Assembly: GCA_038205325.1 (NCBI GenBank)
Contig: JBBRCA010000001.1
Location: forward strand, 4,603-68,602
DNA from: Terriglobales bacterium
GTDB taxonomy: Bacteria; Acidobacteriota; Terriglobia; Terriglobales; Acidobacteriaceae
Direction of reading: 5' to 3'
Length of the DNA stretch: 64,000 bases
In this document: positions 1,268-6,689 of the stretch, in pieces
Numbering within the stretch: position 1 is the stretch's first letter
Layout: each line of letters starts with the position of its first letter
Made by a program: the position numbers and the translations under genes
Notes under the pieces: model-generated
Database searches by the model: none
What the model saw: the letters and a program-made list of their open reading frames with translations, nothing else
Told to the model about the DNA's origin: nothing

Positions 1268-1289
1268 CGGAAGAAAATGCAGGAAACTT

Positions 1290-2327
1290 ATGTTGCTTGA
1301 TGGAATCTTTGTACCTCTGACAACACCTTTCTACCGCGACGGGCGGCTTTATGTTCGGAAGGTCGAACATAACGTCGATCGTTTTTCGAAGACTCCGGCG
1401 GCGGGGGTGATCGCGCTCGGCAGCAACGGCGAAGCGCGCGGGATTTCCGACGACGAGACTCGCGAGACGCTGCACGCGGTCGCGCAGACTGCAGCCCGAG
1501 ATAAGGTGCTGATCGCAGGCGTGTCGCGCGACAGCGTGCGGTTGTCGCTGGCGATTGCCGAAACAGCAGCTACGGAAGGCTTCGATGCGGTGCTGACTCA
1601 TGCGCCTTCGAGTTGTAGCGCGGAGGAGAAGTTGGTGTACTTTCGTGCGCTGGCGGACGCGTCGCCTCTGCCAATTATTTTGAGCAGCGGGGTTGGCGCA
1701 ATGGCGATTACTGAAGCGTGGGTCGCGGAGTTGGCGAGACATCCGAATGTGATCAGTATGGTCGACACGGCGCTTTCTGTGGCGAGGTATAAAGCTCTCA
1801 TTAATTCGACGGCGGACGTCGCGCGCGAAGTGACAGTGACACAGATTTTCGGCGCGGTGACGGGGCGGATGCGGACTGCGGAAAGCACGGGGCCAGCTAC
1901 TTTTGTTTCCGCGGACACGTTGGGATCCGGCGGCAGCGCTGTTGCAGTCGCTCCACCGCAACCTGCGTTGAAGACGCGCTTGAAGAAGGTCGGATTTCAG
2001 ATGCTTGCGGCGGGGAGCGTGGACATGCTTCCCTTGCTGCTGGCGGGCGCTACCGGCGCTGTTCCTGCGCTGGCTGCGTGCGCTCCGCAAGCGTGCCATG
2101 AGGTCTACGCGGCGTGGAAAGATGGTGATCCGGATCTTGCCGCTCAGAAATCGTTACGAATCGCCGCAGCGACTAAGTTGCTAAATGAGGATCTCGGCAT
2201 CGCAGGCTTGAAGTATGCGTGCGACCTGAACGGCTATTACGGAGGATCACCGCGACTGCCGCGGCTTCCGCTCGACGGCGCAGCGCGCACGCGGGTAGAG
2301 CACGCTATGCGGGAAATTCGCAACTAA
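1290..2327 (+). CDS. DapA/DHDPS (N-acetylneuraminate lyase superfamily)-like protein lacking the Schiff-base lysine
   Basis: MLLDGIFVPLTTPF N-terminus, GSNGE motif, YACDLNGYYGGSPRLP C-terminus. Start moved to ATG 1290 after AGGA. PNVISMVDT stands where PNIVGIKDS is expected. Confidence 0.85.
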   Translation: MLLDGIFVPLTTPFYRDGRLYVRKVEHNVDRFSKTPAAGVIALGSNGEARGISDDETRETLHAVAQTAARDKVLIAGVSRDSVRLSLAIAETAATEGFDAVLTHAPSSCSAEEKLVYFRALADASPLPIILSSGVGAMAITEAWVAELARHPNVISMVDTALSVARYKALINSTADVAREVTVTQIFGAVTGRMRTAESTGPATFVSADTLGSGGSAVAVAPPQPALKTRLKKVGFQMLAAGSVDMLPLLLAGATGAVPALAACAPQACHEVYAAWKDGDPDLAAQKSLRIAAATKLLNEDLGIAGLKYACDLNGYYGGSPRLPRLPLDGAARTRVEHAMREIRN

Positions 2328-2349: not shown

Positions 2350-3177
2350 TCAGCCCAAGAACTCCACCGTCCCCCGACAAATAATCTCCGCAGGCCCGGT
2401 CAGCATCATCTCGCTTTGCGCGTCGGTCCACGTCACGCTCTGCGGGCCACCCGGAGCCAGCGCCGTCAATGCACGCGCCGCGCCGCGCAGACTCATCGCC
2501 GCAGCGCTCGCGGCACAAGCCCCCGTGCCCGACGACATCGTCGGCCCACATCCGCGCTCATAAATCCGAAACGCAATCTCACCCTCGCCGAGCACCTTCA
2601 CAAACTCTACATTCGTCCCTCGCGGAAACAGTTTGCTGGTACTGATCTTCTCGCCCAACTCTTGCCAACCCATCCCGTACGCGCCGAAATCTTCACGCTC
2701 GGTAAAAACCACAAAGTGCGGGTTTCCAACATCGACCACCGCCCCTTCCACCACGCGCATCAGCCCTTCAATCTCGATGTTCCGCTGCATCACGCGCGGC
2801 ACGCCCATCGCACTCTCAATCCACCACTCCGTTCCTTCGCGCTGCGCTTTATCTCGTACCACGCGACACGTCCGCACCCCGCCCTGTGTGCCCAACGCGA
2901 CCTCTTCGCGTCCCTCGCTCTCCGCCAGCCACGCCGCAACGCAGCGCGTCCCATTGCCGCTCAACTCCGCCTCACCACCGTCCGCGTTGAACAGCCTCAG
3001 GAACAACGACCCGTCCGCGCGCCGCTCCAGAAACTCAATCCCGTCCGCGCCAATGCCCGTGTTCCGCGCACAGAGCTTCTTCGCCAACGCCTGATGGCGT
3101 CCAGCGGCGGCCGCTTCTTCGATCACCAGAAAGTCATTCCCGCACGCATGTACCTTCACAAATCCAATGCTGCTCAC
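2350..3177 (-). CDS. dapF: Diaminopimelate epimerase-fold protein (both catalytic Cys replaced by Ser)
   Basis: FVKVHACGNDF, LFNADGGEAELSGNGTRC, VDVGNPHFV, GTNVEF, YERGCGPTMSSGTGACA. Confidence 0.85.
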   Translation of the reverse strand: MSSIGFVKVHACGNDFLVIEEAAAAGRHQALAKKLCARNTGIGADGIEFLERRADGSLFLRLFNADGGEAELSGNGTRCVAAWLAESEGREEVALGTQGGVRTCRVVRDKAQREGTEWWIESAMGVPRVMQRNIEIEGLMRVVEGAVVDVGNPHFVVFTEREDFGAYGMGWQELGEKISTSKLFPRGTNVEFVKVLGEGEIAFRIYERGCGPTMSSGTGACAASAAAMSLRGAARALTALAPGGPQSVTWTDAQSEMMLTGPAEIICRGTVEFLG

Positions 3178-3950
3178 TCGTCCTCCAGGTCGCGGAACAC
3201 GGCCACTTGGTCCGTGCCGTCGTTGGCCCGCAATTCACTTAACAGCTTTTTGTGGAGCTTTCCGGTAGCCAGTACTGAAAACGAAATGCGCTCCATTCCC
3301 GCGACATTGTCTCGATCCACCACATTCAATCGTAACGCCGAGGCATCGAGCACCTTGAGCACCGACACAAACATCCTGTGCCGCGCCTCTTCGCGCACCT
3401 CCGCCAGCGCCTCCGCGCGAGCCGCGCCGACAATGTCCTGACCCAGCGCGCTACCCACATCCGCGCGCACCTCATACAACATCGGGAAACGCTTCCATCC
3501 CAACTTACCCTCCAGCGCTCCCACGGCCTGCAACGCAATCAGCAGAATCGCCGTCGCAAACGCTGCTACCGCATATAGCCCCGCGCCGCACGCCATTCCC
3601 ACCGAGGCCACCACCCACACCGTCGCGGCGCTGGTCAGGCCAACCACGCGGCTCTTGGTATGCAATATCAGCCCCGCGCCCAGGAAGCCAATTCCTTGCA
3701 CGATGTTCGAGGCCACCTGTCCCTTGTTTTGCCCGATGTCGCCGGCTAGCACCGGGCTCAGCAGCGTAAACAATGCCGATCCCATACAAATCAACATGTT
3801 GGTGCGCAGTCCCGAATCCTTGTGCCTGTACTCGCGCTCGATGCCCACCAGGCCGCCCAGAGCCGACGCCATCAGCAGGCGCTTGAGCGCGGCTTCGGAC
3901 AAGATCATTTGCTGCAGCGAACTGAAAGAGAGGTGACTCTGCAAAAACAT
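3174..3950 (-). CDS. MgtC/SapB family membrane protein
   Basis: GGLVGIEREYRHKDSGLRT, IVQGIGFLGAGLI, GLTSAATVW. Start taken at ATG 3950; the longer ORF to 4064 is probably over-extended. Confidence 0.92.
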   Translation of the reverse strand: MFLQSHLSFSSLQQMILSEAALKRLLMASALGGLVGIEREYRHKDSGLRTNMLICMGSALFTLLSPVLAGDIGQNKGQVASNIVQGIGFLGAGLILHTKSRVVGLTSAATVWVVASVGMACGAGLYAVAAFATAILLIALQAVGALEGKLGWKRFPMLYEVRADVGSALGQDIVGAARAEALAEVREEARHRMFVSVLKVLDASALRLNVVDRDNVAGMERISFSVLATGKLHKKLLSELRANDGTDQVAVFRDLEDE

Positions 3951-4076
3951 CGTCGCAGCAGAATAGCAGCCACGACCCGCTTCCGGGTACGCAATATGAA
4001 AAGTTGCTTGCGCCTGGGAAAATAAAGGGGCGTCATCGGTTGCGACGACGCCCACTTTAGCCAAGCAACTTTCTCT

Positions 4077-4595
4077 TCAGGCTGCCATCGACAGTGGGGC
4101 CTTTACGTTGATTCGCGCCGACAGTATTGTCAGCGCTGCGTCGGCATGTTTTTCTTCCTCCAGCGTCTTCTCCAGTAACGCCGCATGGTCGCTCTCGCCG
4201 AGCACGCTCGCCCAGGTCCGCAGCGTGCCATACACGGCGATTTCGTGGTGCTCCACTTTGTTGCCCGAAGCGATCAAACTGACATCGCGCAGCGCGGGAT
4301 TTTTCGCATCGTCCGCCTCGCTGCTCGCTCCGGAAATCAGTGTTGCCGTCACTTTGCACTTCAATCCGTCAACCTCTCCTTGATCGGCATCGAGGATCCG
4401 TTCCAGACGCGACACATGTTCCTTCGACTCCTCCAGGTGCGTGCGAAACGCGTCCGCAAGCTGAGGGTTGGTGGACGCCTCGATCATCGCCGGCAACCCT
4501 GTTTCGACAATCTGCTTTTCGCTATCTAAAGCCGTGCGCAGACCCTCCACGTACAGTGTCCGCAAATCATTGATATCCGCTGAAAACAGGCCCAT
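4077..4595 (-). CDS. Ferritin-like DUF892 (YciE/YciF) family protein
   Basis: LYVEGLRTALDSEKQI, HLEES, KVEHHEIAVYGTL, LEEEKHAD. AGGAG RBS 7 nt upstream of ATG 4595. Confidence 0.9.
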   Translation of the reverse strand: MGLFSADINDLRTLYVEGLRTALDSEKQIVETGLPAMIEASTNPQLADAFRTHLEESKEHVSRLERILDADQGEVDGLKCKVTATLISGASSEADDAKNPALRDVSLIASGNKVEHHEIAVYGTLRTWASVLGESDHAALLEKTLEEEKHADAALTILSARINVKAPLSMAA

Positions 4596-4820
4596 GACCA
4601 TTCTCCTTCGCACACGACTCGTCCCGGCCATGAGGCCTGCGAGTGCGATGCGAACTTTAAAACATCGTTAGGTGTTGCGTTCTTCCGGCCAGCAAACAGC
4701 CGGGGCTTCAACCGCTTCAACTGGGGTAAGATGCCGTCTCCCAGCCACAAGTCATCGACCGGGTGGGCCCAGCTTCGCGACATCTTTTCGTCGCTTAGGG
4801 GTACCTTGACGGCGACCCTT

Positions 4821-6689
4821 CTAGGGCCTCACGCCAACCCGATCCGCTTTATAAACCCGCGCACACGGCTGCCCGGTTGTGCATATCACCTCAAGTTCGG
4901 TCAACCCCTCGGGATGCGCCCTCACCGCGTCCGCCACCGGATCACCGGCAATCGCAATCACGTAGTCCGCGTTGGCCGCCGGAGCCTCCAGCGCCTTGTG
5001 CCACGAGTCCCAATCCTGCTCGCTCACCATGCTGCGCAACGTCCGCCCCGCCACCTGCACCGCGCCCACGTGCGCCGACGTGTACATCATCACAGGAGCG
5101 TCCGAGGGCATGCGCTGCATCGCCTCCGCAATCCCGTGTTCAAACGCCACCCGCGTCGTGGCATTCACCATGCCTTCCTTCAGTACCAGAGGCACGCGGT
5201 ACATCATCCCCAAACAGTTAACGACGCACAGCAGCATCGCTACGGGCTGAGCCAGTCTGGCCGCGACCCGTGCCCAGCCCGCAGACCGCGCGCGCAGCCA
5301 CGCATCGCCTCGCCACGCTGCCAGCGCCGCATACACACTTAGCGCGGGCAACAGTTCCATCCCATAGCGGGAGTTGTAATACGAGTGTGGCCACAACTGC
5401 GGAATAAAAATCGGCACTGACCCATACGCGACCGAGTACACATAAAACGGCAGCGGCAACCACAACAACCACGCCAATCGCGCCGTACTGCGTGTACTTA
5501 TTTCGTGTCGCAGTGTTGTTGTTTTTCTTTTTGTCATTCCCGCAGGGAATCTGCTTTCTTCCGCAGCAGCAGGAATCGGGTCTGCAGTCGCGGACATGGG
5601 TTTTCGCCAGGACACCCAAAGCCCCACCAACGCCGCAATCATCACCGCCCACCCGGTCTCCCAAACCGAAGCGTCTACCTGCGCGGTCCGCATATAGAAC
5701 AGCAATGCCCATCCCGGATTCATCCACCCGCGATAGTTCTGCCCCGGCGGCGCCGTCCTATGCTCGATCGCCTTGGCCGAATAGGGTCCGCGCATAAAGT
5801 CCAGCCAGTCCCCCATGAAGTGGTGATTGAACCCGAACCACACCACCGGCCCAATAACACACAGCAGCGTAAACACAGCGAATGCGCGCAGCATTCGCCG
5901 CCGCAGCGCCGTATCGCCGCGCCACAACTTCCAGGCGAAACAGCACCACACTACCGCGCCCACCACCCAGCCGTCGTAGCGCGTAAAGACCTGCGCCAGA
6001 ATCAGCAAGCCAGCGCCCATCATCCACCGTTCCGCGCTTCGCTCGTTGCCATCTCGCAACGCTGCGACCGTCTCCACAGCTGCGACCACGGTCCACACCA
6101 GCAGGGCCAGAAATAGCGCCTCGGTCATCGCCGTCGAAGCCAGAAACAGCAGGTTCGCGTTGAGCGCGTAAAACGTCGCCGCCACCAGCGCCCAGCGCAC
6201 GGCCATCATGCGCCGCGCCAGCCGCCAAACGCCCGCGACGCTCGCCGCATAACTCAGCACCGACATCGGAGCGCCGCCCAACCCGCTCTGCCACCACGCC
6301 ATCTTCTGCACAAACGGCAACATCAACAAATGCGGCAGCGGCAGCCACACCCCGCCCAGTTGCGACACACCGGGCCACCGCGCATCGAGAATCCGGCGCG
6401 CAATCGCGAGATGTGCAACCGCATCGCCGTAGAGCAGTAGATAGCCCTTCGCGTAACACACCAACGTCGCAAAAAAACCGAGCACCAGCGCGGCCATAAA
6501 GACGATCCGCACCTCACCCGCGCCCACTGTCCGCACCGCCTCCCAATCGAACCCAGCGGTTCCCCTTCCGCCTCGCCCACGCTGTCTCAACGACCCCGGC
6601 CGTTCATACGTGACAGTACGCACGTTCTCTTCGCGGTCATTGCGTTCTCCCTTCGCGTCCTCCGTGTTCGTTTTTGATTTTTTTTTCAT
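4821..6689 (-). CDS. Polytopic membrane protein, GT-C/glycosyltransferase family 39-like
   Basis: LYGDAVAHL, WLPLPHLLMLPF, ASTAMTEALF and TRYDGW motifs with many hydrophobic segments. Start position uncertain. Confidence 0.7.
   Translation of the reverse strand: MKKKSKTNTEDAKGERNDREENVRTVTYERPGSLRQRGRGGRGTAGFDWEAVRTVGAGEVRIVFMAALVLGFFATLVCYAKGYLLLYGDAVAHLAIARRILDARWPGVSQLGGVWLPLPHLLMLPFVQKMAWWQSGLGGAPMSVLSYAASVAGVWRLARRMMAVRWALVAATFYALNANLLFLASTAMTEALFLALLVWTVVAAVETVAALRDGNERSAERWMMGAGLLILAQVFTRYDGWVVGAVVWCCFAWKLWRGDTALRRRMLRAFAVFTLLCVIGPVVWFGFNHHFMGDWLDFMRGPYSAKAIEHRTAPPGQNYRGWMNPGWALLFYMRTAQVDASVWETGWAVMIAALVGLWVSWRKPMSATADPIPAAAEESRFPAGMTKRKTTTLRHEISTRSTARLAWLLWLPLPFYVYSVAYGSVPIFIPQLWPHSYYNSRYGMELLPALSVYAALAAWRGDAWLRARSAGWARVAARLAQPVAMLLCVVNCLGMMYRVPLVLKEGMVNATTRVAFEHGIAEAMQRMPSDAPVMMYTSAHVGAVQVAGRTLRSMVSEQDWDSWHKALEAPAANADYVIAIAGDPVADAVRAHPEGLTELEVICTTGQPCARVYKADRVGVRP
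5520..5554. repeat. REP-like palindromic element inside a coding sequence
   Basis: TTTTTCTTTTTGTCATTCCC-GCA-GGGAATCTGC, nearly identical to intergenic copies at 50137 and 63635. Confidence 0.8.

Follow-up and report, generated by a model that had tools for sequence, protein, structure and literature searches.

Serine at both catalytic positions in the DapF of a Granulicella-like Acidobacteriaceae member: a probable housekeeping diaminopimelate epimerase of the Ser/Ser class

What does a protein with the fold of diaminopimelate (DAP) epimerase do when both of its catalytic cysteines are replaced by serine? The question is raised by the dapF gene (Table 1) on contig JBBRCA010000001.1 of the Terriglobales assembly GCA_038205325.1, from which a stretch of 64,000 nucleotides, the window, was analysed. 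A preliminary description of this DNA had suggested a non-canonical epimerase or an enzyme with a different substrate. The first suggestion holds, because dapF is a DapF orthologue with its ligands intact in a genome that needs DapF, and the second is not supported, because the DAP-binding residues are conserved and this is the only DapF found. We suggest that dapF very probably encodes the housekeeping LL-/meso-diaminopimelate epimerase of a Granulicella-like member of the Acidobacteriaceae, belonging to a natural Ser/Ser class of DapF. In this analysis the suggestion is based on orthology, fold, pocket conservation, long-term selection for serine and the dependence of the pathway on dapF; the activity of this protein and the activation of its serines are what we infer.

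The dapF product matched the TIGR00652 equivalog model with 203.6 bits (cut-off 114.65 bits) over model positions 2-268 of 270, and PF01678 (DAP_epimerase) was detected in two stretches with 152.4 bits. The textbook Cys/Cys catalytic pair is absent and the pair is Ser73/Ser216: in the HMMER alignments with A. thaliana 3ejx, Anabaena 9mro and B. anthracis 2otn, the two serines align exactly with the catalytic cysteines in xCGNG and ACGTG. Alignment to solved DapFs confirmed in this way the earlier reading of AGC and TCG as serine codons at the catalytic sites. Among the 17 solved-structure sequence matches, 16 are diaminopimelate epimerases and the 17th is the O-ureidoserine racemase 7vdy (3ejx 153 bits, 9mro 148, other DapFs 102-134, 7vdy 104); none of the 17 is a Ser/Ser DapF. 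The AlphaFold model, built on 35 Ser/Ser sequences, has a pLDDT of 94.4 and a pTM of 0.92, and its predicted helices 74-88 and 217-230 start directly after residues 73 and 216, in the canonical DapF geometry. Foldseek placed solved DapFs at ranks 1 to 26 together with 7vdy (ranks 7 and 10), with 9mro as the top match (TM 0.86), while PhzF, HisR and proline-racemase structures followed with 13-17% identity and much weaker E-values. The product is nearer to DapF by score than to the other DapF-fold enzymes (DcsC, HisR, PhzF and the proline racemase family), and the bifunctional DapF/glutamate racemase model (NF038284) was rejected with 70.4 bits against a cut-off of 350.

Table 1. Positions of dapF, its key codons and its neighbouring genes in the window.
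Feature	Position	Strand	Remark
DHDPS-family paralogue, divergent, convergent with dapF, downstream	1272-2327	+	PF00701, 87.7 bits
dapF, Ser/Ser-type diaminopimelate epimerase	2350..3177	-	275 aa, GTG start, frame intact
Ser216 codon TCG	2530..2532	-	Position of catalytic Cys217 (ACGTG motif, here SSGTG)
Ser215 codon	2533..2535	-	Co-varying Ala-to-Ser change adjoining the second catalytic position
Cys210 of ERGCG	2548..2550	-	No conserved compensating residue
Glu207-Arg208 (ERG motif), putative binders of the DAP distal amino and carboxylate groups	2554..2559	-	Mapped from Anabaena Glu215/Arg216 (PMC12039745)
Ser73 codon AGC	2959..2961	-	Position of catalytic Cys73 (xCGNG motif, here LSGNG)
MgtC-family gene, upstream of dapF	3174..4064	-	PF02308, 121.7 bits
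DUF892 gene, further upstream	4077..4631	-	PF05974, 137.3 bits

DapF enzymes with two catalytic serines and the same fold have been described by Lamer, van Belkum, Chen et al. (J Mol Biol 437(21):169375, 2025), as cited in a 2026 paper on P. aeruginosa DapF (PMC13728532), according to which the serines of these enzymes are catalytic. The dapF product has in common with them, as they are outlined there, its fold and its two serines in the catalytic positions, and on that account it is an uncharacterised member of an already published Ser/Ser DapF class. With Ser/Ser DapFs reported in 2025, the Cys/Cys pair therefore no longer defines the DapF family, to judge from the same citation. The preliminary description had allowed that normal epimerase activity might already be documented for this variant, which would speak against an altered enzyme; at the level of the enzyme class this is nearly the case, through Lamer et al. 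in the words of PMC13728532. The same paper states that Anabaena sp. YBS01 encodes a Cys/Cys and a Ser/Ser DapF, which may aid in coping with oxidative stress, and that its Ser/Ser enzyme is inactivated by Ser-to-Cys replacement. The Ser/Ser form of that strain is thus, by this account, a second DapF beside a Cys/Cys copy, whereas here it is the only DapF found. A cyanobacterial Ser/Ser sequence was not recovered by plasmid tblastn, from the ESM Atlas or by cluster names.

Crystal structures of Anabaena DapF provide the map of the DAP-binding pocket. The proximal carboxylate is bound there by the backbone NH of Gly76, Asn77, Gly225 and Thr226 and by the Thr226 hydroxyl, the proximal amine by Asn13, the distal amine by Asn66, Glu215 and Arg216, and the distal carboxylate by Arg216, Asn66, Asn164 and Asn197 (PMC12039745). 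In the alignment, Anabaena N13, N66, G76, N77, N164, N197, E215, R216, G225 and T226 correspond to N14, N64, G74, N75, N152, N189, E207, R208, G217 and T218 of the dapF product. Nine of these ligands, Glu207-Arg208 included, are invariant in 35 diverse Ser/Ser sequences that are 34-48% identical to the dapF product, and T218 is conserved in 90% or more of them.

We compared 43 Ser/Ser with 70 Cys/Cys sequences for positions that differ together with the catalytic pair. The largest differences were detected at eight positions. Val gives way to Phe/Ile at 205, Arg/Lys to Ala at 82, Met to Ile/Leu at 60 and 72, and Ala to Ser at 215 (Ser in 36/43 Ser/Ser and Ala in 64/70 Cys/Cys sequences) and 220; the other two are 17 and 241. 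In this comparison the serines are accompanied by no additional His, Asp, Lys or Tyr, and by no new general base. A newly gained catalytic residue was ruled out, the changes being only hydrophobic or small apart from the loss of Arg/Lys at position 82. These differences may be phylogenetic, reflecting shared ancestry, and not functional. Attention had also been drawn earlier to a new cysteine nearby, in the ERGCG stretch. This idea did not survive the comparison: many Ser/Ser relatives have Val or Ala in place of Cys210, some ordinary Cys/Cys DapFs share the Cys, and a compensating role of Cys210 was ruled out.

The pathway context was reconstructed for the source genome (91% complete) and its relatives. 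The source genome has one DapF-family match, and each of 41 Terriglobales genomes (the source genome and 40 relatives, four of them single-contig) has one DapF locus, broken into fragments in two draft assemblies. The lysA gene (486 bits in the source genome) is above the cut-off in 41/41 genomes of the order, and Ddh, the meso-DAP dehydrogenase, in 0/41, the source genome included; without the unpublished genomes G029, G034, G035, G036, G038 and G040 the counts are 35/35 and 0/35. Neither type of DapL is above the cut-off in the source genome. Its dapA and dapD genes are clustered, the DapD is recognised as a succinyltransferase by model NF008808, and MurE contains the motif DNPR, which we take to be a mark of DAP-adding enzymes. 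The PF01168 search of this genome detected LysA and two further proteins, one of the alanine-racemase type and one of the YggS type, and no extra alanine-racemase-type paralogue as a DapF2 candidate. The conserved DAP-binding residues, the presence of a sole DapF together with lysA, dapA-dapD and a DNPR-type murE, and the absence of ddh and dapL from the matches above cut-off make it very likely that dapF fulfils the usual DapF role. A second canonical DapF, a Ddh, a DapL or a DapF2-type racemase was not found in the source genome, where 91% completeness does not strictly exclude a second enzyme; the four single-contig relatives show no second enzyme either. The preliminary description had asked whether a canonical dapF or ddh is present: neither was found, the single DapF match being the Ser/Ser one. 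We found no useful literature on the peptidoglycan chemistry of the Acidobacteriaceae.

The dapF start and the stop codon of the MgtC-family gene share 4 nt (GTGA), which makes joint transcription of the two genes likely. In 41/109 relatives' loci (Acidobacteriaceae) dapF is directly preceded by an mgtC homologue, and in 28/109 a DUF892 homologue is located upstream of dapF; we know of no functional rationale for the mgtC-dapF adjacency. Further along, at 4821-6689 (-), a 622-aa predicted membrane protein had no Pfam match at E <= 1e-4. On the other side, the divergent DHDPS-family paralogue scored 83.8 bits with TIGR00674 (cut-off 206), and the true dapA of the source genome is on another contig (C69), beside dapD. 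The paralogue adjoins dapF in 0/109 relatives' loci, and a functional tie of dapF to this neighbour was rejected, the gene being convergent and absent from these loci.

This neighbour, adjoining dapF in the source genome, could be taken as a sign that the substrate has changed. The DapF fold would then support epimerisation in one direction only, dehydratase or isomerase chemistry, or racemase activity on a different amino acid. Some DapF homologues do act on other substrates, such as HisR and the O-ureidoserine racemase 7vdy with its 104 bits, and changed chemistry is known after the loss of one catalytic Cys, as in the Cys-to-Thr replacements of the proline racemase and Asp/Glu racemase superfamilies (PMC8142540). 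The only exceptions to the Cys pair in that review of cofactor-independent racemases are Thr/Cys enzymes of other superfamilies (EcL-DER, MMP0739 and the human trans-3-hydroxyproline dehydratase), in which a hydroxyl replaces the catalytic thiol (PMC8142540). They differ from a Ser/Ser DapF in superfamily, in having one base replaced and in their one-directional or dehydratase chemistry. We consider changed chemistry or a changed substrate improbable for the dapF product. The residues holding both ends of DAP are conserved, the score is far over the DapF equivalog cut-off with true DapFs as the top matches, and the gene is the sole DapF of a genome where LysA needs meso-DAP; the DHDPS-like neighbour is convergent and absent from 109/109 relatives' loci, and Ser/Ser DapFs are reported as DAP epimerases in what PMC13728532 relates of them.

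Conservation of the serines was analysed in the nearest relatives. All 121 of the nearest 90%-cluster representatives are Ser/Ser, as are the 29/29 loci with readable sites in relatives from two Terriglobales families. These relatives comprise 24 genomes of this genus and members of a second family, and the residue and codon tables include the loci L027 (G038) and L030 (G035) from unpublished genomes. Site 73 is encoded by AGC in 21 of these loci, AGT in 5 and TCC in 3, and site 216 by AGC in 16 and TCN in 13, with both families occurring even within the genus. Both serine codon families, AGY and TCN, are used at both catalytic sites. They are two substitutions apart, which suggests that serine was kept by selection through repeated switches of the codon set. 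The remark made earlier that TCG is two changes from a Cys codon, and no read error, agrees with the TCG-TGY distance and with the 121/121 Ser/Ser clusters. In a scan of contigs, the named records with this DapF belong to the Acidobacteriaceae (Granulicella, Edaphobacter, Terriglobus, Bryocella, Silvibacterium and Terracidiphilus). Two records titled as Verrucomicrobia/Verrucomicrobiae MAGs (L063 and L099) carry a dapF 68-71% identical to the Granulicella-type gene; they are probably mislabelled or a contaminated bin.

The codon data bear on the proposal that the dapF product has lost all or nearly all of its activity and persists in a role other than catalysis, as in the E. coli DapF-RppH pair, while another racemase makes meso-DAP. 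DapF moonlights with RppH (PMC13728532), E. coli without dapF grows normally, apparently via slow LL-DAP conversion by another racemase, and a non-homologous DAP epimerase of the alanine-racemase family, DapF2, exists (PMC13759103). A pseudo-enzyme, however, is not expected to hold its substrate ligands invariant or to keep serine across codon-family switches; the PF01168 matches of the source genome are one Alr-type protein, one YggS-type protein and LysA, and the published Ser/Ser enzymes are said, in the citing text of PMC13728532, to use their serines catalytically. We therefore regard a dead or very slow enzyme as unlikely, by a shade more so than changed chemistry. A sequencing or assembly error, or a decaying pseudogene, has a negligible chance and is refuted, as judged from the sequences, by conservation and codon diversity: hundreds of assemblies made independently show the same pair of serines, through different codons, and the dapF frame is intact.

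The preferred reading, a working DAP epimerase, would keep the 1,1-proton transfer with two bases and no cofactor that is usual for DapF. Placed at the N-termini of two helices, on opposite faces of the DAP alpha-carbon, Ser73 and Ser216 would act as the base/acid pair, with the remainder of the DAP-binding pocket unchanged, and the product meso-DAP would pass to LysA for lysine and to MurE for peptidoglycan. Laboratory Cys-to-Ser changes in Cys/Cys DapFs reportedly hinder catalysis (PMC11602996; PMC12039745), so the activity of a Ser/Ser enzyme probably depends on a co-adapted active site. The H. influenzae C73S and C217S mutants (PDB 2q9h and 2q9j) have the DapF fold with serine at one catalytic position each; they are single engineered changes in a Cys-adapted site, whereas here both serines occur in a naturally co-adapted protein. 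The two-domain fold, the DAP ligands, the length and the pathway role are common to the dapF product and the canonical Cys/Cys DapFs (EC 5.1.1.7; 9mro, 3ejx, H. influenzae 1gqz/2gke, E. coli 4ijz), from which the Ser/Ser form is set apart by the replacement of both Cys by Ser, by Ala215Ser, by Met72 to Ile/Leu, by Val205 to Phe/Ile and by having no Arg/Lys at position 82. A disulfide in the active site inactivates Cys/Cys DapFs (PMC5296763; PMC13728532); the Ser/Ser enzyme cannot form it.

How widely the serines are distributed was analysed at two levels. Among the best 150 50%-identity representatives, the Cys/Cys pair occurs in 73, Ser/Ser in 45, Ser/Cys in 5 and Cys/Ser in 3, and a tree made without the catalytic columns joined 39/43 full-length Ser/Ser representatives in one clade (SH-aLRT 100). 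For the phylum, one genome per GTDB family of Acidobacteriota was sampled and 56 main DapF copies were read. The Ser/Ser pair was seen in 34 of them, Cys/Cys in 18 and Cys/Ser in 4, so that Ser/Ser is not uniform across the Acidobacteriota. The alignment of Acidobacteriota homologues proposed in the preliminary description thus gave a divided answer, since the Terriglobales relatives that were read are all Ser/Ser while the phylum is mixed (34/56).

Two DapF subtypes were detected in the Acidobacteriota, ERGVGxT, which holds this dapF, and ERGVExET, with a one-residue insertion. The ERGVGxT subtype is Ser/Ser in all families but one, and in the ERGVExET subtype 16 families have Cys/Cys, 4 have Cys/Ser and 4 have Ser/Ser. 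The combined tree has a main Ser/Ser clade of 64 rows (95%), and a 99% branch sets off a clade of 24 insertion-type copies and one Cys/Cys copy without the insertion (f22), which contains two separate, well-supported Ser/Ser pairs. In the AU test of a 60-row subset, a single Ser/Ser clade was 58.8 log-likelihood units worse and was not rejected (p-AU 0.068), for a group that had been defined after the tree had been seen. The tree suggests at least two origins of Ser/Ser in the Acidobacteriota, and we hold repeated origin to be likely, with a single origin not rejected by the AU test.

A mixed Cys/Ser pair was observed in the ERGVExET-subtype DapFs L156 (f15), L167 (f28), L185 (f45) and L194 (f54), and it is possible that such Cys/Ser DapFs are living intermediates between the Cys/Cys and Ser/Ser forms. 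The combined proposal, that Ser/Ser arose at the base of a large clade and again via Cys/Ser intermediates in ERGVExET, and that a Ser/Ser enzyme can be the only DapF of a free-living aerobe, we hold tentatively, at a little under an even chance. If it is true, recurrent origin and use as the sole DapF would be signs of selection acting repeatedly, for instance in favour of an epimerase that is not inactivated by oxidation.

Some observations at the edge of the family came from the same genomes. Family f31 has weak DapF-like matches of about 60-100 bits, below the cut-off (L171, L172, L197 and L204, in G127, G075, G151 and G139, respectively). All four have a Ser/Cys-like pattern, and three of the four are without the GNDF motif and maybe N-terminally short; the stretch is the only DapF-like match in G075 and G151, and a full Ser/Ser DapF is present as well in G127 and G139. 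The near-complete Acidobacteriota genomes G054 (f3, 100% complete) and G055 (f17, 99% complete) had no match to TIGR00652.

Taken together, dapF is the right name for the gene, and at the class level the literature already accounts for its unusual active site, as far as the work of Lamer et al. is represented in PMC13728532. For genome annotation, an absent Cys/Cys motif should not disqualify DapF calls, and thiol-directed DapF inhibitors would miss bacteria with a Ser/Ser DapF. The remaining interest is evolutionary: on how many occasions the thiol pair gave way, and for what reason. In the abundant soil Acidobacteriaceae the serine-type DapF is, on the reading preferred here, the sole housekeeping enzyme, and the switch from thiol to hydroxyl may have recurred.
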